Assembly: GCF_003856495.1 (NCBI RefSeq) | Contig: NZ_CP034118.1 | Coordinates: 2,511,842 to 2,543,841, forward strand | Direction: 5' to 3' | DNA from: Staphylospora marina | Lineage (GTDB): Bacteria > Bacillota > Bacilli > Thermoactinomycetales > Thermoactinomycetaceae | DNA: 32,000 bases | Shown here: piece after piece, positions 1,568-24,379 of the stretch | Position numbering within the stretch: the stretch's first letter is position 1 | Layout: the number at the start of each line of letters is the position of its first letter | Notes under the pieces: generated by a model | The model's input: the letters and a program-made list of their open reading frames with translations, nothing else | Databases searched by the model: none | Told to the model about the DNA's origin: nothing | Program-made: the position numbers and the translations under genes

Positions 1568-2530
1568 TCACTCTCCCAGCAGGGCCATCAGCAGCGCCTT
1601 CTGCGCATGCAGGCGGTTTTCCGCCTGATCAAACACGACCGAGCGGGGGCCGTCGATCACGCCCGGGGATACCTCCCAGTCGCGATAGGCGGGCAAACAG
1701 TGGAGGAAGACCGCGTCTTCCTTCGCCAGCGCCATCAGGGTTTCATTCACCTGATATCCCTGGAAGTCGCGGAGGCGTTTCTCCTTTTCCTCTTCCTGCC
1801 CCATGCTGGCCCACACGTCGGTGTAAACGGCGTCCGCTCCCTGGACGGCGACGAACGGGTCATGGCTGAAGTGCAAGCTGCCTCCGGTGAGAGCGGCCAT
1901 TTCCTCCGCCTGTTTCCACACCTCAGGCAGCGGTTCGTACCCCGGGGGCGTGGAAATGTGGAGGTGAATGCCCGCCAGCGCCGCCCCGTGCATCAGGGAA
2001 TGCAACACGTTGTTCCCGTCGCCGACATACGTCAGCTTCAGCCCGGACAAGGTTCCCTTCACTTCCCACAGCGTCAGCAGGTCGGCGAGAATCTGGCACG
2101 GATGGTACAGGTCGGTCAGTCCGTTGATCACCGGGATTTCGGCATGCGTCGCCAGCTCCTCCACCAGTTCCTGGCTGAATGTGCGGATCAGGATGGCGTC
2201 CACGTAACGGGACAGGACTTTCGCGGTGTCCTCGACCGATTCGCCGCGCCCCATCTGCAACTCTTCCCGCTGAAGGTTGAGCGCATGGCCGCCCAGCTGG
2301 GCCATGCCCACCTCGAAGGACACGCGCGTCCGGGTGGACGGCTTGTCGAAGATCATGGCCAGGGTTTTCCCCTTGAGCGGAGCGCCGATGCTCCAGAGTT
2401 GCCGCTGGGTTTTCATCTGGTGGGCCAGTTCCACCAGCGATTGAAGTCCGGAGGGGGAAAGACCCTCCAGCGTGAGAAAATCCTGCCCCTTGAGCGGGGC
2501 CAATGCCGGTTTGGACAAGAGTGCGTTCAT
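1568..2530 (-). CDS. argF: ornithine carbamoyltransferase
   Basis: STRTR, HPCQ and HCLP motifs are present. The ATG at 2528-2530 overlaps the argD stop (ATGA). The 499-aa ORF extending to 3067 is an upstream over-extension. Confidence 0.93.
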   Translation of the reverse strand: MNALLSKPALAPLKGQDFLTLEGLSPSGLQSLVELAHQMKTQRQLWSIGAPLKGKTLAMIFDKPSTRTRVSFEVGMAQLGGHALNLQREELQMGRGESVEDTAKVLSRYVDAILIRTFSQELVEELATHAEIPVINGLTDLYHPCQILADLLTLWEVKGTLSGLKLTYVGDGNNVLHSLMHGAALAGIHLHISTPPGYEPLPEVWKQAEEMAALTGGSLHFSHDPFVAVQGADAVYTDVWASMGQEEEKEKRLRDFQGYQVNETLMALAKEDAVFLHCLPAYRDWEVSPGVIDGPRSVVFDQAENRLHAQKALLMALLGE

Positions 2531-3735
2531 TTGGCGACAACCTCCCTGATCTCGCTCAATCCTTCCATTTTCCCTCCGAACCGCTTTTCGGCCACCTGCC
2601 CGATGATCCGGACCGCCTGCCGGATCTCCGTTTCGCCGACCACCAGGGGAGGGAGCAGGCGCAGCACCGTTTCCCCCGCCGGAAGCGTGACCAGTCCCGC
2701 ATGCAGCAGCTCCCGGATGAAGGGCTGAACCGGAACGGTGAGCTCCACGCCGATCATCAGCCCGAGACCGCGGACATCGATCACTTCCGCGTACGGAGAC
2801 AGCACTTGGCGCAATCCGTCCCTCAGCAACCGGCTTTTCGCTTCCACTTCCCCGATCAGTCCCGACACCTCCAACTCCTCCAGCACCGCTCCCGCCGCCG
2901 CCATGGCCAGCAAGTTTCCGCCGAAGGTGGTTCCGTGCGAACCGGGTCCCAAATGCGGCTTCAATTCCTCTCGGGCCAGCATGGCGCCCACGGGGAATCC
3001 GTTGCCGAGTCCCTTGGCCGTCGTGATCACGTCCGGGGTGATGCCGTATCGTTGAAAGGCAAACCATGCGCCGGTTCTTCCGATGCCGGTCTGCACTTCA
3101 TCCACCATCAGGAGCAACCGTTTCTCGCGGCACCAGTCGGCCAGCTCCCGGACAAACCCGGGATCGACGGGTTTCACGCCGCCCTCCCCCCGTACCAACT
3201 CCAACAGCACCGCCGCGGTGGCCGCTCCGGTGGCTTCCCGCACCGCGTCCATGTTCTCCGGCGGCAGAATGCGGAATCCGCCCGGAAGCGGGTCGAATCC
3301 CCGTTTCACCTTCTCCTGACCGGTGGCGGTGAGGGTGGCCAACGTCCGCCCGTGAAACGATCCCTCAAACGTCAGAATCTGCGGTTCGGCAATCACCTTG
3401 GCTTCCCGGGCCCAGCGGCGGGCCAGCTTGATGGCCGCCTCATTGGCCTCCGCGCCGCTGTTGCAGAAGAACACCGCTCCCATCCCCGACACCCGGCAAA
3501 GGGCTTCCGCCACCCGTTCCTGAAGCCTGTGGGGAAAGAGATTGGACAGGTGCCAAAGCTGCCCGGCCTGCCGGATCAGGGCTGCCCGCACGCGGGGATG
3601 ATTGTGTCCCAGTCCGGTCACCCCGATTCCGGAAGCGAAATCCAGCCATCGCCGTCCCGACCGGTCAGTCAGCCAGACGCCTTCTCCTTTTTCGAACTCC
3701 ACATCATACCGGATGTAAGTGGGAAACAGCTTCAC
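2527..3735 (-). CDS. argD: acetylornithine aminotransferase (PLP-dependent, class III)
   Basis: 402 aa. The N-terminus MKLFPTYIRYDV... aligns with Bacillus ArgD, and the protein has the typical class-III aminotransferase layout. It sits between argB and argF. Confidence 0.92.
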   Translation of the reverse strand: MKLFPTYIRYDVEFEKGEGVWLTDRSGRRWLDFASGIGVTGLGHNHPRVRAALIRQAGQLWHLSNLFPHRLQERVAEALCRVSGMGAVFFCNSGAEANEAAIKLARRWAREAKVIAEPQILTFEGSFHGRTLATLTATGQEKVKRGFDPLPGGFRILPPENMDAVREATGAATAAVLLELVRGEGGVKPVDPGFVRELADWCREKRLLLMVDEVQTGIGRTGAWFAFQRYGITPDVITTAKGLGNGFPVGAMLAREELKPHLGPGSHGTTFGGNLLAMAAAGAVLEELEVSGLIGEVEAKSRLLRDGLRQVLSPYAEVIDVRGLGLMIGVELTVPVQPFIRELLHAGLVTLPAGETVLRLLPPLVVGETEIRQAVRIIGQVAEKRFGGKMEGLSEIREVVAK

Positions 3736-5808: not shown

Positions 5809-6840
5809 TCACGGGTATTGGGGAAGTGCCTTCAGTCCGGTTTCCTCGGACCACCCCAGCCGGATGTTGGCATTTTGCATCGCCTGACCGGCGGCTCCTT
5901 TCATCAGATTGTCGATCGCCGCCATGAGGATCACCCGCCCCGTCCGCTCGTCGACCCGCACGGCGATGTCACAAAAATTGCTGCCTCGCACGGCACCGGT
6001 TTCCGGCGGACGGTCCGTCAGGATCCGGATGAACGGTTTGTCCCGATACGCGTCCCGATACAGGTCGGTCAGTTCCTTTTCTGTATATTTATTCATCAAT
6101 GATGCATAAACGGTGACCAAGATTCCGCGGTTCATGGGAACCAGGTGAGGAACAAAACTGATGCGAAGCTCCCGTCCGGCAAAGCGCGCCGCCCCTTCTT
6201 CGATCTCCGTCGTGTGAGGGTGACCCGTCACCCGGTAAGGCCTGAGGTTTTCATTCACCTCGCAATACAGCAGTTCCCGCTTCAGACCGCGGCCGGCACC
6301 GGTCACGCCCGACTTGGCGTCGACGATCACCCCGGCCGGATTCACGATCCCTTCCCTCAGAAGCGGAAGGAGCGCAAGGAGCGTCGCGGTCGGATAACAA
6401 CCCGGATTGGCGATCAGTTCCGCCTCCCGAAGTCGCTCCCGGTTCCATTCCGACAATCCGTACACGGCGCGTTCCAACCATTCTTTCGGCGCCGGCGGCT
6501 TGCCGTACCGCTCCTCATACACGGCCGGATCGTGAAACCGGAAATCGGCCGACAGATCGATCACGATGCAGCCCGCCTCAAGGAACGGGGCCGCCCATCG
6601 GGCGCAGATTCCCGGAGGAGTGGCGAAAAAGACCAGATCCGCCTTCCGGCACACCCGCTCCGGATCGAGCTCTTCGTACATCCGTCCCAGGTGGGACAGA
6701 GAGAGCCAGGAAGTGCCCAGTTCCTCCCCCGCCTGGGAAGTGGAAACCGCCGCCGACAACTCCAGCTCCGGATGCCCTTCGATCAGCCGGATCAGTTCCG
6801 CCCCTCCGTATCCCGTTGAACCGATCACCGCCGCTTTCAT
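5809..6840 (-). CDS. argC: N-acetyl-gamma-glutamyl-phosphate reductase
   Basis: MKAAVIGSTGYGG Rossmann N-terminus and the PGCYPT active-site Cys motif are present. ATG at 6838-6840 with GAGGAGG 8 nt upstream. The ORF extension to 7437 crosses the promoter and the repeat array and is spurious. Confidence 0.93.
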   Translation of the reverse strand: MKAAVIGSTGYGGAELIRLIEGHPELELSAAVSTSQAGEELGTSWLSLSHLGRMYEELDPERVCRKADLVFFATPPGICARWAAPFLEAGCIVIDLSADFRFHDPAVYEERYGKPPAPKEWLERAVYGLSEWNRERLREAELIANPGCYPTATLLALLPLLREGIVNPAGVIVDAKSGVTGAGRGLKRELLYCEVNENLRPYRVTGHPHTTEIEEGAARFAGRELRISFVPHLVPMNRGILVTVYASLMNKYTEKELTDLYRDAYRDKPFIRILTDRPPETGAVRGSNFCDIAVRVDERTGRVILMAAIDNLMKGAAGQAMQNANIRLGWSEETGLKALPQYP

Positions 6841-6861
6841 GCTCATTCCCTCCTCGATATG

Positions 6862-6895
6862 CATCATTATACATTCGAGTTCATATTTATTCAAC
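6862..6895 (-). promoter_or_regulatory. argC sigmaA-type promoter overlapped by two ARG-box-like (ArgR/AhrC) sites
   Basis: Minus strand: TTGAAT (6889-6894), 17-nt spacer, TATAAT (6866-6871). The candidate boxes are gtTGAATaaatATGAAct (6878-6895) and ctCGAATgtatAATGAtg (6862-6879), compared with the consensus wnTGAATwwwwATTCAnw. Confidence 0.6.
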
Positions 6896-6964
6896 ACTTT
6901 TTTCCCGTTTCGTTTTCGCCGGGGAAACGGAAGATTCCGGAAATGAACGGCGACTCCATCCAGC

Positions 6965-7630
6965 CTCCGCGATGAAATGCATTTTCCCATGCCAGGCGAG
7001 AAAGCCGGATCATTCCCGCGAGTAACTTTGCCACCACAACGAAATGAGCGGAGAATTCTCCGGCAGACATTGCGCACACAATGAAAGCCCGACCCAATCC
7101 CTGTGAGCGCCTTTGCCATCGCAACGAAACGAACAGGGATTGGCGTCCGGCGAGCATCCGGACAAGCGGAAAACCATGTCTGTTCCCGGCTCATTTCATT
7201 GCTGACGCAAAGGCATTCGCCGGGAACAGTCACGCCGACGACGCAATTGCTTGGTGAGAAAGCCGTAGCCAACCCCTGCGAGTGCCTTTGCCATCGCAAC
7301 GAAACGAGCGGAGAATACTCCGGCAGACATTGCGCACACAATGAAAGCCCGACCCAATCCCTGTGAGCGCCTTTGCCATCGCAACGAAACGAACAGGGAT
7401 TGGCGTCCGGCGAGCATCCGGACAAGCGGAAAACCATGTCTGTTCCCGGCTCATTTCATTGCTGACGCAAAGGCATTCGCCGGGAACAGTCACGGTGGCA
7501 AGGTATTTGCCTGGTGCGAAAGCCGGGTCATTCCCCGCGAGTAACTTTGCCACCACAACGAAACGAGCGGAGAATACTCCGGCAGACATTGCGCACACAA
7601 TGAAAGCCGGACCCAATCCCCGCGAGAGCA
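6965..7630 (-). repeat. Repeat array 2: same module family as array 1 in inverted orientation, with a 260-bp-period tandem duplication
   Basis: Core-containing modules begin near 7019, 7094, 7186 (inverted), 7270, 7354, 7446 (inverted), 7527 and 7613. Segment 7046-7234 matches 7306-7494 with one mismatch (177 bp identical). Segment 7011-7100 is approximately repeated at 7520-7612. Confidence 0.9.
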
Positions 7631-18269: not shown

Positions 18270-18902
18270 TCAGTAAGAGCAGGTGTTGAGCATGGCTTGC
18301 AGGGCGGATTTTTCCGAAGCCTGAACGCTCAGACCCCAGTTGTATTTGGTTCGGATCCACCACTTGGCATAAGCGCACCGGGCACCGGTTCTGGGCGGCT
18401 GCCAGGTGGACGGATCCTGGTCTCCCTTGCTTCTGTTCACGGAAGACGTCACGGCGATCAGTTGGGGGCCCGAGAGATCATTGGCGAATGCTTGCCGTTT
18501 CGACTGGGACCAGCTGCTTGCTCCCGAACGCCATGCCTCGGCCAAGGGCACGATATGATCAATGTCCACTTCGGAAGGACTGTAGACGACCACACCGTCA
18601 TAGTAGCTGTACCATTTGCCCGAGGTCACCGGACAGTTGCCGGAATAATAGTCCGCATCCCGTTTCAACACCACCTGACGGGTGTTGCAGCCGCCTCCCT
18701 GATTGGTCCAATGCGGGAATTTGTCGCGGGAGTATCCGGACATGGATCCTTCCGGCTCCACTTTGAGCGCGTTCAATTCAGCCTGGGCGCTGGCGAGCGA
18801 GGGAGTCGACGGCAGCGCAAAGGCGGATTCGGTCGGATAAACGATGGACAATGACAAAGCCAGCATCAACGCCAACGACATCATCAAGGGTTTGTGAACC
18901 AT
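18270..18902 (-). CDS. secreted HNH/DUF1524-type (GmrSD C-terminal-like) nuclease family protein
   Basis: ATG at 18900-18902 with GGAGG 7 nt upstream. It has a signal peptide with an AFA|L cleavage context and the His-Me finger context DIDHIVPLAEAW...NRSKGD. Confidence 0.7.
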   Translation of the reverse strand: MVHKPLMMSLALMLALSLSIVYPTESAFALPSTPSLASAQAELNALKVEPEGSMSGYSRDKFPHWTNQGGGCNTRQVVLKRDADYYSGNCPVTSGKWYSYYDGVVVYSPSEVDIDHIVPLAEAWRSGASSWSQSKRQAFANDLSGPQLIAVTSSVNRSKGDQDPSTWQPPRTGARCAYAKWWIRTKYNWGLSVQASEKSALQAMLNTCSY

Positions 18903-19030
18903 GATGCAACCTCCTGTTGTCAGAATCAAACCCTTCTATATCATAACATTCCGTTGGGTTGATGCATTAGTTTTTCTAATAAAAAAATACAGATAAATAA
19001 TATATCCATCTTTGACAATATCAAGATCGA

Positions 19031-19872: not shown

Positions 19873-19907
19873 AAATCAAAAAGTCCTCCGGACCAAAGTC
19901 CGGAGGA
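19873..19907 (-). terminator. Rho-independent terminator after the cold-shock gene
   Basis: Perfect 10-bp stem TCCTCCGGAC (19884-19893) / GTCCGGAGGA (19898-19907). The minus strand continues CTTTTTGATTT. Confidence 0.85.
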
Positions 19908-19923
19908 CATGCATTTTCCGAAA

Positions 19924-20130
19924 TCACTCAGCGTCAAGTTTGACCACGTTCGCGGCTTGCGGCCCGCGCGGACCCTCCACGATCTCAAACTCTACGCGTT
20001 GGCCTTCTTCCAGCGATTTGAAACCTTCCATTTGGATGGCGGAAAAATGGACGAACACGTCGCCGCCGTCCTCACGCTCGATGAAGCCGTAGCCTTTTTC
20101 CGCGCTGAACCACTTGACTTTGCCTTGCAT
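19924..20130 (-). CDS. cold-shock protein (CspA family)
   Basis: 68 aa beginning [29 protein letters not shown], with the RNP1 and RNP2 motifs. ATG at 20128-20130. The ORF extension to 20340 is spurious. Confidence 0.95.
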
Positions 20131-20366
20131 GAAAAACAGTCCCTTCTTGAAACAGATATTTCGCGCGGCTTGCTCCGAAAGCGGAGCTTGTCGGGCAGAC
20201 GGGACATCGGCCCGCAACCCGCAGGCTTTGCCAGAAGCCTGGTGGAGGAGGGTCCCGGAATCACTGGAAGAGTGTTCGAGCGCTCCTTCCTTGAGTTCCG
20301 GACACACGTCCCGCAAGGGGAGAGACGGAACCCAAAGCATAAGAATGAAAATTCTTACGCCACTCC

Positions 20367-20409: not shown

Positions 20410-21147
20410 TCACAGCACTTTGCTCAGGAAGGCTTTCAAGCGATCATGCTTGGGATTTCCAAATACTTCTTCGGGCGTCCCTTCTTCGATGATGCGACCC
20501 TGATCCATGAACAGAACGCGGTCGCCCACTTCGCGGGCAAAGCCCATTTCGTGGGTCACCACCACCATGGTCATGCCTTCCTTGGCCAGCTGTTTCATGA
20601 CCTCAAGCACTTCTTTCACCATCTCCGGATCCAGTGCGGAGGTGGGTTCGTCAAACAGCATGAGTTTGGGTTCCATCGCCAGCGCCCGTGCGATCGCGAC
20701 ACGTTGTTTTTGTCCGCCGGACAGCTCTTCCGGCCAAGCGTTCGCCTTGTCTTTCAAGCCCACTTTTTCCAGGAGCTCCAGCGCTTTTTTCTCCGCCTGC
20801 TCTTTGGAAACCTTGCGGACATGGATCGGGCCGAGCGTGATGTTGTCCAACACTTTTTTGTGCGGAAACAGCTCAAATTGCTGAAACACCATGCCCACGT
20901 CGGTGCGCACTTTGTTGATGTCCGTGGCGGGATCGGTCAGATCGTGACCGTTGACGACCACCTTTCCGGAGCTGACCGCTTCCAGGAGATTGAGGCAGCG
21001 AAGAAACGTACTCTTGCCGGAACCGCTCGGTCCGATGACGCAGACCACTTCCCCTTCACGGATCTCGGCATCGATGTCTTTGAGCACATGGTGGGAACCG
21101 AACGATTTGTTCAGTTTCTCCACGTGAATCACAACGTTTCCGCTCAT
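20410..21147 (-). CDS. polar amino-acid ABC transporter ATP-binding protein
   Basis: Walker [10 protein letters not shown], signature LSGGQKQR, Walker [13 protein letters not shown], and the typical GlnQ/ArtM-family length (245 aa). The ATG overlaps the permease stop (ATGA). Confidence 0.93.
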
Positions 21148-21836
21148 GCCGCTCCTCCTTTCCGGCTTCCGGTTTCAAAGCGTTTTTCCAGATGGAGCAC
21201 GACCCGGGACAAAAGCAGGGTCAAAATCAGATACATCACGCCGGCCATCAGATACGGCGGAATCCGCTCGAAGGTGTTTTTGGCCGTGGTGAAGGCGGCG
21301 TACGTAATGTCATTGACGGCGATCATCGCCACCAGCGAAGAGTCTTTGAGCAGGGCGATGAATTCATTGCCCAGCGGAGGGAGCATCCGCTTGAACGCCT
21401 GGGGCAGGATCACCAGTTTCATGGCCTGGCCGTACGTCATGCCCAGCGAACGGGCCGCTTCCATCTGTCCCTTGTCGATCGACTGAATGCCTCCGCGGAA
21501 GATTTCCGCGATGTATGCGCCGGCGTTCAGCGAAAGCGCGACGAAGCTTGAGAACAGGGCGTCCGGAGGAACCATGCCCAACGATTCAAACAGGGTGGGC
21601 AACACGGCGAAGTGAATGGCGAGGATCTGCAAAAACAGGGGCGTTCCCCGGAACAGATCGACATAAGCTTTGGCCGGCCAGATCAGCCATTTTTTTCCGG
21701 AAATCCGCATCAGACCGAGCGTCAGCCCGATCAACAGTCCCACCAGCACGGCCACGACCGTCAACTGGATCGTGGTAAACAACCCTCGAATGAACAAATC
21801 CTTGTAATCAATGAGGACGGACCAGTCAAAACTCAT
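21144..21836 (-). CDS. amino-acid ABC transporter permease (HisMQ/GlnP family)
   Basis: About 5 TM segments and the EAA-like loop ([28 protein letters not shown]). The preferred start is the ATG at 21834-21836. The alternative GTG at 21845 is only 2 nt from GGAGG. Confidence 0.9.
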
Positions 21837-21837
21837 G

Positions 21838-21954
21838 TTATCCACAACCTCCTTCTCCCGAAATGCATGACCGTCAAGTTGTGCACAATTTTATCCACAT
21901 CATCCACAACCGGAACGCCAAAAATTCACACAGGTTTTTCACAAGTTATCCACA
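21838..21954 (+). promoter_or_regulatory. DnaA-box cluster (7 co-oriented boxes)
   Basis: Perfect TTATCCACA boxes lie at 21838-21846, 21891-21899 and 21946-21954. One-mismatch boxes are TTGTGCACA (21879-21887), TCATCCACA (21900-21908) and TTTTTCACA (21935-21943). AAATTCACA (21922-21930) has two mismatches. Confidence 0.8.
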
Positions 21955-21990
21955 AGAACGGACATTCCCGTCATGGTGACGTTCTGACAC

Positions 21991-22018
21991 GAAAGGGAGT
22001 GCCGGAGCACTCCCTTTT
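21991..22018. terminator. Intra-operon hairpin (attenuator/terminator) just after the binding-protein gene
   Basis: Stem GGGAGTGC (21995-22002) / GCACTCCC (22007-22014) lies 7 nt past the stop at 22022. It is followed by TTTC on the minus strand and TTTT on the plus strand. Confidence 0.55.
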
Positions 22019-22021
22019 CCA

Positions 22022-22807
22022 TCACTGCGCGGCGCCGAAATATTTGTCGTAAATTTTGTCGTAGGTGCCGTCTTCCTTGATTTTCTTCAGGCCCTCATTC
22101 AGCATTTCAAGCACTTTGGTGTTGCCTTTTTTCACCATGATGCCGTACTGTTCGGGCGCGATGGAGGTATCTTCCACCAGCTTGAATTTGTCGGAGCCCA
22201 GTTTTTTGATGTATTCGTTCACGACGGCATTGTCCACCACCACGGCATCCAGACGGCCCACTTGCAGGTCGTTGATCGCACCGGCGATATCGTCATACCC
22301 TTTGAGGCCCTGGTACGTTTTTCCGAATGCTTCCTGCACCACGGCTTCCCCGGTGGTGGCGGATTGCACGCCGATTTTCTTGCCGTTCAATTCTTTCAGG
22401 GATTGGACCGTGGAGTTGGTCGGGACGAGAATCAGCTGTTTTGCATCAAAATACGGCTCGGTGAAGTCGTATTTTTGCTTCCGCTCTTCGGTGATCGTGA
22501 TGGCGGAAATGGCGGCATCCAGCTTGCCGCGGTCGATGCCTTCAAACAGCGGGTCCCAGCCCACGTGCTGCAGCTGCACTTCAAACCCGCCGGCGTTGGC
22601 CACCGCGTTCAGGATCTCCACGTCAAAACCGGTGATTTCACCGTTGCCTTCCTGTTTTTCGAACGGCGGGAACTGCGCGTCCGTTCCCACTTTCAGAACG
22701 GTTTTGCCGCCTTCGCCGGTTTGCTCCTTGCCCGCATCGCCACAGCCGGCGAGCACCGAGAAGGACAACAGCAGGGCGAAAAGCACGAGTCCGATTCGTT
22801 TCATCAT
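22022..22807 (-). CDS. amino-acid ABC transporter substrate-binding lipoprotein (paralog 1)
   Basis: Start at the ATGATG at 22802-22807 with GGAGG 9 nt upstream. It has the lipobox VLAGC and the family-3 SBP motif GTDAQFPPFE. Confidence 0.9.
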   Translation of the reverse strand: MMKRIGLVLFALLLSFSVLAGCGDAGKEQTGEGGKTVLKVGTDAQFPPFEKQEGNGEITGFDVEILNAVANAGGFEVQLQHVGWDPLFEGIDRGKLDAAISAITITEERKQKYDFTEPYFDAKQLILVPTNSTVQSLKELNGKKIGVQSATTGEAVVQEAFGKTYQGLKGYDDIAGAINDLQVGRLDAVVVDNAVVNEYIKKLGSDKFKLVEDTSIAPEQYGIMVKKGNTKVLEMLNEGLKKIKEDGTYDKIYDKYFGAAQ

Positions 22808-22889
22808 TGAAGTGCTCCTCCTTTTCCTGAAACCGGAACCGAACGTGAAGCCGGTCACCCGGGCATGATCTTCGTGAATCACGGTTCAT

Positions 22890-22919
22890 ATTATAAAACT
22901 TTCCTGCATGAACATGCAA
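22890..22919 (-). promoter_or_regulatory. sigmaA-type promoter of the SBP1-permease-ATPase operon
   Basis: Minus strand: TTGCAT (22914-22919), 18-nt spacer, TATAAT (22890-22895). The palindrome TGCATGaaCATGCA (22905-22918) overlaps the -35. TGAATcacgGTTCA (22875-22888) lies just downstream of the -10. Confidence 0.5.
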
Positions 22920-23017: not shown

Positions 23018-23821
23018 TCATTCAAGAGGAACGGAAGACTCAATCGCCGAGAAATATTCCAGGAAGATCTGGTCATAAATTCCGTCTTTCCGGACTTTGT
23101 CGAGACCGTCGTCAATCATTTTCAAGAGTTCCGTGTTCCCTTTTTTGACCATGATGCCGTACTGTTCGGACGGAAACGAAGGATCTTCCACAACCTTGAA
23201 CTGTTCATCCCCGAGTTGCTTCAACCAATACAGGATCAGCCCCCGGTCGGCAAGCACCGCGTCGATGCGTCCGGCCTTCAAATCCTTGATTCCTTCACCG
23301 ACATCCTTGTATTTCCGGATCCCCGGATCGTTTTTCCCAAGACGTTCCTCGGCCAGTTCTTCCCCGGTCGTGCCGGAAGCAACGCCCACTTTCTTGCCTT
23401 TCACGTCCTTGAATGACTTGATCGGTGAATGGGCCGGTACGAGAATCATTTGGGTCGCTTCGAAATAAGGAGCGGAAAAATCGAAATCCTTCTTTCGTTC
23501 TTCCGTGATGGAAATGGCGGAAATGGCCGCGTCGATTTCTCCCGACTTCAGCTTTTCAAACATCGGATCCCAGCCGGTATGAATGATTTGAACATCCTGT
23601 CCCGTCTCCGAAGCAATCGCTTTCATCAGATCGATGTCAAACCCGCTGAGCTGATCGGAGGAATCTTTCATCTCGAACGGGGGAAATTGGGCGTCGGTCC
23701 CGACTTTGATCGTGACGGCTTTTTTCTCCCCGCCGCTGACGGCCCCGCCTCCGCACCCTGTCAACATCAACACCAATCCCACAATCGCCAGGAACCACCT
23801 GCATGATTTCAGCCTCAGCAA
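23018..23821 (-). CDS. amino-acid ABC transporter substrate-binding lipoprotein (paralog 2)
   Basis: TTG start at 23819-23821 after AAGGAGAGAAGGGA gives MLRLKSCRWFLAIVGLVLMLTGC, with a lipobox. By eye it is about half identical to paralog 1, including GTDAQFPPFE and EQYGIMVKKGNT. Confidence 0.88.
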   Translation of the reverse strand: MLRLKSCRWFLAIVGLVLMLTGCGGGAVSGGEKKAVTIKVGTDAQFPPFEMKDSSDQLSGFDIDLMKAIASETGQDVQIIHTGWDPMFEKLKSGEIDAAISAISITEERKKDFDFSAPYFEATQMILVPAHSPIKSFKDVKGKKVGVASGTTGEELAEERLGKNDPGIRKYKDVGEGIKDLKAGRIDAVLADRGLILYWLKQLGDEQFKVVEDPSFPSEQYGIMVKKGNTELLKMIDDGLDKVRKDGIYDQIFLEYFSAIESSVPLE

Positions 23822-23906
23822 ATCCCTTCTCTCCTTGTCAAGGTTTGGAAAAAACGTTTCGAGAGTAAAAATAGTTTCGAAAAGTGAAATAACAACTTTT
23901 TGTCTC

Positions 23907-23936
23907 ATTATAAAACAAGCCCTGACACAAATTCAA
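23907..23936 (-). promoter_or_regulatory. sigmaA-type promoter of SBP paralog 2
   Basis: Minus strand: TTGAAT (23931-23936), 18-nt spacer, TATAAT (23907-23912). Confidence 0.5.
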
Positions 23937-23948
23937 TTCACATTTTCG

Positions 23949-23990
23949 ACAAGAACAAAGCCCCTGTCCCGCATGATTCGGGAAAGGGGC
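23949..23990 (-). terminator. Rho-independent terminator after the HU gene
   Basis: Minus strand reads GCCCCTttCCCGaatcatgCGGGacAGGGGC followed by TTTGTTCTTG. Confidence 0.7.
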
Positions 23991-24103: not shown

Positions 24104-24379
24104 TCAGCCGTTGACCAGCTCTTTGAGCTGTTTGCCGGGCTTGAAGACGGGGGTTTTGCTTGCCTCGATGTGAATTTCTTCGCCGGTCTGCGGGTTGCGC
24201 CCCTTCCGGGCGGCACGATCGCGGACCTCGAAGTTTCCGAATCCGATCAACGTCACTTTTTCACCGTTTTTGAGCGCTTCGGAGATGGACGAAAGAACGG
24301 CCTCCACCACCGCTCCGGCTTCTTTCTTGGTCTTTCCCGTGCTTTCGGCCACCCGATCGATCAGTTCCGCCTTGTTCAT
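24104..24379 (-). CDS. hbs: DNA-binding protein HU
   Basis: 91 aa: [12 protein letters not shown]...[24 protein letters not shown]..., the canonical HU fold sequence. Confidence 0.95.

Follow-up and report, generated by a model that had tools for sequence, protein, structure and literature searches.

A cluster of DnaA boxes inside an amino-acid ABC transporter operon of Staphylospora marina and its relatives

The transporter operon and its DnaA-box array

Here, we describe a cluster of DnaA boxes that is located inside an amino-acid ATP-binding cassette (ABC) transporter operon of Staphylospora marina (Thermoactinomycetaceae). The DNA analyzed is a stretch of 32,000 nucleotides (contig NZ_CP034118.1, positions 2,511,842 to 2,543,841), called the window below, and all coordinates without another label are those of the window. 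According to Pfam and NCBIfam, the genes around the cluster are all on the minus strand, in the order subtilase, metK, a DegU-like regulator, comFA, comFC, an HU-like gene, two substrate-binding protein (SBP) genes of the SBP_bac_3 family and, past the boxes, the permease and ATPase genes, csp, hpf, cell-envelope genes, secA, prfB and, further on, argCJBDF. The first binding-protein gene (polar amino-acid type) is found at 23018–23908 and the second one (SBP2, longest open reading frame, ORF) at 22022–22882; the permease gene (BPD_transp_1, HEQRo/PAAT type) occupies 21144–21836, with its Shine-Dalgarno (SD) sequence GGAGG at 21848–21852 on the same strand, and the ATPase gene, whose start codon overlaps the permease stop codon, occupies 20410–21147. 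The transporter is a polar amino-acid one (HEQRo/PAAT family), of the Arg/Gln/cystine type according to NCBIfam; none of its proteins reaches an NCBIfam equivalog threshold, and the permease matches the annotated Staphylospora marina permease with 100% identity.

The boxes are in the spacer between SBP2 and the permease gene (21837–22021), which has a GC content of 47.6% vs 58.5% for the window and measures 185 nt, as stated in the original prediction, an earlier reading of the letters that proposed a non-origin cluster, i.e., a titration site or an operator through which DnaA acts on the permease and ATPase genes. Boxes were called against the Bacillus subtilis consensus TTATNCACA (Ishikawa 2007; Smith & Grossman 2015), whose strict form, TTATCCACA, is the highest-affinity DnaA box (Ishikawa 2007). 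Between 21838 and 21954 there are three perfect TTATCCACA boxes and three boxes with one mismatch to TTATNCACA, all on the plus strand and in the same orientation; on the sense strand of the operon, i.e., the minus strand, they read TGTGGATAA. The perfect copies (21838–21846, 21891–21899, and 21946–21954) are the only ones in the window, and our scan places them, in one direction and within 117 bp, where they had been reported. From the distal end, the array starts with box A (21946–21954, perfect, −118 from the permease ATG), the distal anchor, followed by box B (21935–21943, TTTTTCACA) and site C (21924–21932, ATTCACACA), and these three have an 11-bp period that leaves 2-bp gaps. Site C has three mismatches to TTATNCACA and four to TTATCCACA; taken alone, it is a weak and doubtful candidate DnaA site. 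After a 15-nt break comes a triple core made of box D (21900–21908, TCATCCACA, −72), box E (21891–21899, perfect, −63), which abuts box D, and box F (21879–21887, TTGTGCACA, with a palindromic core, −51), which is 3 bp from box E. Boxes B, D, and F each have one mismatch to TTATNCACA; counted against the strict form, the mismatches are two, one, and two, respectively. The gaps between neighboring boxes are 2, 2, 0, and 3 bp, and chromatin immunoprecipitation sequencing in Escherichia coli indicates that DnaA favors box pairs 2–3 bp apart. Box G (21838–21846, perfect, −10) begins 32 nt past the end of box F and fills the spacer between the SD sequence and the permease ATG at 21836, exactly as had been noticed before; from the start of box E to the start of box G there are 53 bp, or about five helical turns. 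The earlier count of three one-mismatch boxes is right under TTATNCACA, but the additional two-mismatch box is weaker than given there; the likeliest sequence behind it is 21924 ATTCACACA, with three mismatches.

Chance occurrence of such an array had been called negligible, and our simulations agree. We ran 400 first-order Markov simulations of the window, in which a cluster was defined as boxes on the same strand with at most one mismatch within 120 bp; the largest simulated cluster contained two boxes vs the six observed, and each simulated 32 kb had 0–2 perfect boxes vs three, the three being all inside 117 bp. We then applied the index A of Ishikawa 2007 with the threshold of 0.3, which was calibrated on B. 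subtilis. In that species, values above 0.3 were found only at eight in-vivo DnaA sites, whose A values range from 0.36 to 1.64, with 0.94 for both rpmH-dnaA and gcp-ydiF (Ishikawa 2007). The region 21891–21954 has an A value of 0.97, similar to these two, and is the sole region above 0.3 in the window. Stable binding of DnaA to the array is predicted from this value.

The cluster lies outside oriC, as judged within the 32-kb window. Neither dnaA nor dnaN is among the ORFs of the window, and there is no rep gene near the cluster. The GC skew is negative in all 32 of the one-kb bins with no switch, and no AT-rich unwinding element is found in the gap, where the lowest GC content of any 25-bp stretch is 28%; DnaA-trio-like repeats are not visible in the sequence either. 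The missing dnaA and dnaN, the missing skew switch, and the missing unwinding element together argue that the cluster is not oriC. The ORF list and the GC profile are thus in line with the original prediction on both the absent genes and the absent unwinding element, and the GC-skew and origin check that it had proposed, run here within the window, reveals no origin feature.

Conservation, recurrence, and genomic setting

Loci of the family were obtained by a genome scan with the permease, which gave Lihuaxuella, four Laceyella species, Marininema, and a Planifilum metagenome-assembled genome (MAG), and by exact-protein look-up, which added two Thermoactinomyces, Thermoflavimicrobium, Paenactinomyces, a Marinithermofilum-like locus, and Risungbinella. 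All of them share the synteny comFA-comFC-HU-SBP(1-2)-permease-ATPase-csp-hpf. Sense-strand TGTGNATAA boxes are found directly upstream of the permease gene in 12 of 13 family loci, and only the Planifilum MAG has no box at all at this place. The triple core is located at about −72/−63/−51 (±3 nt) from the permease start in 10 loci from eight genera: −72/−63/−51 in the window, three Laceyella, and the Marinithermofilum-like locus; −74/−65/−53 in Thermoactinomyces sp. and Paenactinomyces; −75/−66/−54 in Lihuaxuella; and −70/−62/−50 in Thermoflavimicrobium. A box between the SD sequence and the ATG (−9 to −12) is present in 8/13 family loci. Box F has the counterpart TGTGNATAAC in the relatives, again as the third member of the triple core. 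Box E is the same at 9/9 positions throughout the gap alignment of six sequences, and six further family loci have a perfect box at the matching position.

For footprinting, we aligned the window with Lihuaxuella and two Laceyella species, i.e., four sequences at genus-level divergence. Identical columns make up 47/63 of the boxes vs 13/54 between the boxes, where the sequence varies freely, and boxes D, E, and G together are identical in 26/27 columns; of site C, the TGTG part is conserved. Box A is kept in Laceyella, and in Lihuaxuella the perfect distal box is displaced by one 11-bp register, which is expected if the selected property is DnaA binding and not an overlapping signal. As far as these alignments and positions show it, the array is under strong purifying selection in Thermoactinomycetaceae and locked to the permease start, and the conservation check suggested along with the original prediction has come out in its favor. 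We consider it very likely that the array is a genuine, selected DnaA-binding cluster.

Some details of single family loci are listed here as separate observations. The Thermoactinomyces intermedius locus (L165) has two extra perfect DnaA boxes, at 3360–3368 (minus strand) and 3405–3413 (plus strand), which are convergent and inside the permease coding region. The Marinithermofilum-like metagenome contig (L164) carries a Cas12f1-like/TnpB fragment directly upstream of comFC (1–113).

Bacilli, Desulfitobacteriia, and Negativicutes share the conserved block comF-SBP-permease-ATPase-csp-hpf-secA, and we scanned 1.32 Mb, made up of the window and 160 loci of three Bacillota lineages, for A values. 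Values above 0.3 occur in 21 sequences, with exactly one region each, every one adjoining this operon. Outside the family, such clusters belong to nine Desulfosporosinus genomes, three Desulfosporosinus-like metagenome contigs, Desulfitispora, two further Peptococcaceae/Bacillota MAGs, and one Bacillaceae MAG with 33% GC; in the metagenome scan, clusters were found only in the three Desulfosporosinus-like loci and few close relatives were gained. Each of these is flanked on one side by the binding-protein gene and on the other by the gene before it, which is a YvyF-like zinc-finger gene, comFC, or fliS-x. Two regions, in L024 (ahead of another SBP gene) and L089, are at the locus edge, 3–5 kb upstream of the permease gene. 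Desulfosporosinus has a tandem TTATCCACATTATCCACA, n6, and then inverted TGTGTGTAAC and GGGGATAA, and in the Bacillaceae MAG the core [box][box]nnnTGTGAATAAC is as in Thermoactinomycetaceae, but upstream of the binding-protein gene. That all clusters in the 1.32 Mb of three Bacillota lineages are at one operon suggests a link to the operon itself.

Two side observations concern these outer loci. The clusters in L026, L031, L033, L034, L036, L038, L043, L044, L048, L090, and L127 (Desulfosporosinus and similar), as well as those in L012, L072, and L009, lie upstream of the binding-protein gene and start 20–100 bp past the stop codon of the gene before them, which runs in the same direction. The permease gene of four loci, from a Bacillota MAG (L006), Ammoniphilus (L007), and Aneurinibacillus (L008, L010), is directly followed by csp, and the ATPase gene of the operon is missing there.

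Upstream of the array, the first binding-protein gene has a promoter TTGAAT-18-TATAAT at 23936–23907 (minus strand, promoter scan), and a promoter-like site TTGCAT-18-TATAAT was read from the sequence for SBP2 at 22919–22890 (minus strand). A perfect Spo0A-box-like heptamer, TGTCGAA, is located at 23945–23951 (minus strand), 9 nt upstream of the −35 element of the first of these promoters; Risungbinella (L166) has TTTGTCGAAT just upstream of its DnaA boxes (~2925–2935). The HU-like (Bac_DNA_binding) gene at 24104–24379 (minus strand) is between comFC and the first binding-protein gene and ~2.2 kb upstream of the boxes; it is likewise found in six family relatives (L161 1155–1430, L162 288–563, L163 811–1086, L164 1275–1547, L165 1656–1931, and L166 1387–1662), and across these loci and the window it encodes 90–91 amino acids. 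With a gene for a nucleoid protein ~2 kb away, the cluster brings to mind the dependence of the E. coli site datA on integration host factor (IHF), though we do not take it as evidence.

On the other side, the csp gene with its leader (19879–20229, minus strand) matches the Rfam cspA thermoregulator with 69.6 bits, which is under the gathering score of 78 (E = 1.6e-16). An ORF at 18270–18929 (minus strand) with a GmrSD_C restriction-endonuclease C-terminal domain is found between hpf and the UDP-GlcNAc 2-epimerase gene and may be a small defense-related insertion in an otherwise housekeeping block. The longest ORFs of argC (5809–7437, minus strand, 542 amino acids) and argF (1568–3067, minus strand, 499 amino acids) have ~200 codons ahead of the first Pfam domain, which indicates that the true starts are internal; the stretches upstream of these starts may hold regulatory sequence such as ARG boxes.

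Possible roles of the cluster

Between SBP2 and the array there is a GC-rich hairpin (21995–22014, minus strand; GGGAGTGC-UCCG-GCACUCCC, seen in the sequence and in the RNA fold) followed by UUUCGUGU, a weak U-tract. It begins 8 nt past the stop codon of SBP2, is separated by 40 nt from box A downstream, and is terminator/attenuator-like. A hairpin after the binding-protein gene is found in most, not all, relatives, several box-less ones among them. The fold of the gap has a z-score of −2.2, which is due mainly to this hairpin; in the gap, there is no Rfam match and no conserved RNA structure was found. A tool scan and a simple consensus scan of 11 family loci detected no sigma-A-type promoter at a conserved position of the gap. 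The original prediction had pointed to a TAAAAT −10-like element overlapping the abutting boxes at 21891 and 21900; the two boxes do abut and TAAAAT (21893 to 21888, minus strand) does overlap the box at 21891, but the element is not conserved in the relatives. With neither a conserved TAAAAT nor a sigma-A-type promoter in the gap, an operator here would more probably act as a roadblock within a transcribed spacer than by occluding a promoter, and promoter occlusion was dropped as the main mechanism. From the hairpin-then-boxes layout and the lack of a detected promoter in the gap we infer that the SBP2-permease spacer is probably transcribed.

We consider that the main role of this non-origin DnaA-box cluster is to throttle expression of the permease and ATPase genes, with a probability of roughly one half (0.5). 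The permease and ATPase genes would be expressed by read-through of the attenuating hairpin. DnaA, preferably in the ATP form, would nucleate on the three perfect boxes and spread to the weaker boxes 0–3 bp away to form an oligomer; box G is ~5 helical turns from the core and thereby on the same face of the helix. The bound oligomer would then block RNA polymerase that has passed the hairpin, so that high DnaA activity (e.g., when replication lags) lowers permease and ATPase expression and spares the binding-protein genes. Sequestration of several DnaA molecules would be an unavoidable by-product, as in the DnaA-box clusters (DBCs) of B. subtilis. The general proposal of a non-origin titration site or operator draws support from the family-wide conservation and from the window being free of origin features; as far as the sequence goes, either of the two functions may dominate.

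Several points weigh against a throttling operator. DnaA binding is predicted from the motif, and regulation may run as repression or as activation, the latter as at sda. The consensus scan being simple, the gap may also contain a non-canonical or alternative-sigma promoter. The box between SD and ATG is missing from Marininema, Thermoflavimicrobium, the Marinithermofilum-like locus, and Risungbinella, which indicates that it is not essential. In Desulfosporosinus, the cluster is ~50–250 bp (variable) upstream of the conserved binding-protein promoter TTGtAT-17-TATAAT, does not overlap it, and is partly in the opposite orientation; a variable distance and mixed orientation are more readily explained by a DnaA sink that works independently of position than by a precise operator. 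Such a sink is the main rival as the selected function, and sink function follows automatically from DnaA binding: a pure sink or initiation control site of the B. subtilis DBC or E. coli datA type would titrate DnaA or modulate its nucleotide state with no effect on transporter expression. Besides the untied Desulfosporosinus cluster, it is favored by a box number and an A value like those of B. subtilis DBCs, which lead to early initiation when deleted together, and by species-specific DBCs already predicted in other Bacilli (Ishikawa 2007). We regard it as possible yet on the unlikely side, because a near-fixed distance to the permease start in eight genera and a box between SD and ATG in eight loci are needless for a mere sink, and a preference for this one operon in 1.32 Mb of three Bacillota lineages speaks against it as well. 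A further proposal joins both functions: the cluster, lying in the read-through path of two strongly promoted binding-protein genes, would be a transcription-coupled DnaA reservoir, where transcription of the operon, dependent on nutrients, periodically sweeps DnaA off the 6–7 sites and, conversely, DnaA on these sites turns off the permease and ATPase genes. Amino-acid supply and replication initiation would thereby be coupled both ways, and the recurrent clusters would be an old Bacillota node. This seems rather improbable to us.

The remaining explanations do without DnaA acting on DNA at this operon, or place the boxes in another context. Since every box lies on the sense strand of a spacer that is probably transcribed, one of them between SD and AUG and each with a GGA, a CsrA-like or other RNA-binding protein could act on the UGUGGAUAA repeats of the intercistronic leader and control permease translation, and DnaA itself has been claimed to bind ‘rDnaA boxes’ in the leader RNA of the E. 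coli his operon (Yao et al. 2023). However, all nine positions of the DnaA box are conserved, far more than a GGA core, and the GGA is flanked by invariant 9-mers rather than by the variable sequence of a CsrA-type operator. In addition, the Desulfosporosinus boxes are upstream of a promoter, with a tandem pair in the opposite direction and inverted partners, which is a signature of double-stranded DNA, and the gap has neither a conserved RNA structure nor an Rfam match. The conserved full 9-mer and the partly inverted clostridial clusters upstream of a promoter make control at the RNA level quite unlikely. Slightly less probable still is another DNA-binding regulator, e.g., an amino-acid-responsive repressor, with a motif that resembles the DnaA box. 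TGAATAA within box F of the relatives (TGTGAATAAC) presumably resembles an ARG-box half-site, the transporter is of the Arg/Gln/cystine type, and there are arg genes in the window. We rejected this candidate: the palindromic partner half-site is absent, the three to six strongest sites per species are exact TTATCCACA, and head-to-tail arrays with gaps of 0–3 bp are characteristic of DnaA rather than of dimeric repressors. From the dense one-directional array, one could also suspect a replication origin, either cryptic or secondary, or the remnant of a plasmid or prophage origin; this reading is the least credible of all and was rejected as well, on the gene content and the uniformly negative GC skew described above, with no unwinding element or DnaA-trio-like repeats to be seen, and on the vertical conservation of the site in a housekeeping syntenic block.

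Relation to known DnaA systems and meaning

The non-origin DBCs of B. subtilis are gcp-ydiF, yqeG-sda, ywlC-ywlB, ywcI-vpr, yydA-yycS, and thdF-jag (Ishikawa 2007, Okumura 2011); they are generally close to oriC, which is a tendency and not strictly defining, and species-specific DBCs exist (Ishikawa 2007). A DBC requires at least four clustered boxes within one mismatch of TTATNCACA, and the window has six in 117 bp, three of them TTATCCACA. In box number, A value, non-origin location, and conservation, the cluster has the sequence hallmarks of a B. subtilis-type DBC. Like the B. subtilis DBCs it is intergenic, has an A value (0.97) inside their in-vivo range, is conserved in related species, and would be expected to have a dual role, i.e., transcriptional control of neighboring genes and DnaA sequestration. 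Unlike them, it is inside an operon after a hairpin and not in a promoter region, it has a box between SD and ATG, and all of its boxes are in one direction; the comF-hpf-secA block contains no DBC among the six of B. subtilis. B. subtilis DnaA has been proposed to repress by occlusion and/or roadblock (Ishikawa 2007). The DnaA-repressed promoters of ywlC, yydA, and dnaA and the DnaA-activated promoter of sda share with the window clustered boxes and DnaA as the (here putative) transcription factor, whereas their boxes overlap or flank a mapped promoter and no promoter is detectable in the gap of the window.

Three E. coli systems are comparable in part. Like datA, the window cluster is non-origin and next to a terminator (in the window, a terminator-like hairpin), and read-through transcription matters at datA; datA, however, requires an IHF site and stimulates hydrolysis of DnaA-bound ATP, and the two have no sequence or synteny relationship. 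To our knowledge, IHF is not known in Bacillota. With no homology between them, we do not class the cluster with datA. At asnC, as far as the citing papers describe it, a terminator/dnaA-box complex blocks elongating RNA polymerase (Schaefer & Messer 1988, 1989, via citing papers); going by these accounts, the hairpin-then-box layout is alike, whereas asnC has a single box at the gene end and the window has 6–7 boxes between cistrons of one operon. The his-operon leader with its ‘rDnaA boxes’ also has DnaA-box-like sequences beside an attenuator hairpin in an amino-acid-related operon; the RNA binding proposed there is called ‘possible’ by its authors (Yao et al. 2023), and the evidence in the window favors a DNA-level element instead. 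Our literature searches for DnaA-box clusters located at amino-acid ABC transporters, hpf, or comF gave no such report.

Three features of the cluster are unusual: it is positioned within an operon, it has a box between SD and ATG, and clusters recur at the corresponding operon of distantly related Bacillota. Non-origin DnaA-box clusters have been characterized experimentally in few organisms, and those of B. subtilis regulate sda, ywlC, yydA, and dnaA and restrain initiation. To these the locus adds a cluster that is strongly conserved family-wide, placed behind an attenuator-like hairpin, and tied to amino-acid import, not to replication or sporulation genes. It suggests a link between DNA replication status and nutrient import that has not been described before, and the clusters at the same syntenic operon in distant classes argue that this link is not an accident of one genome. 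If the cluster serves as a DnaA reservoir, the independent clusters in Thermoactinomycetaceae, Desulfosporosinus/Desulfitispora, and the Bacillaceae MAG would mark an old, recurrent, and as yet unrecognized node of the DnaA network at comF-ABC-csp-hpf-secA. If DnaA controls, or is controlled by, transcription of the operon, nutrient uptake would be connected directly, at the molecular level, with the replication initiator of spore-forming Bacillota.

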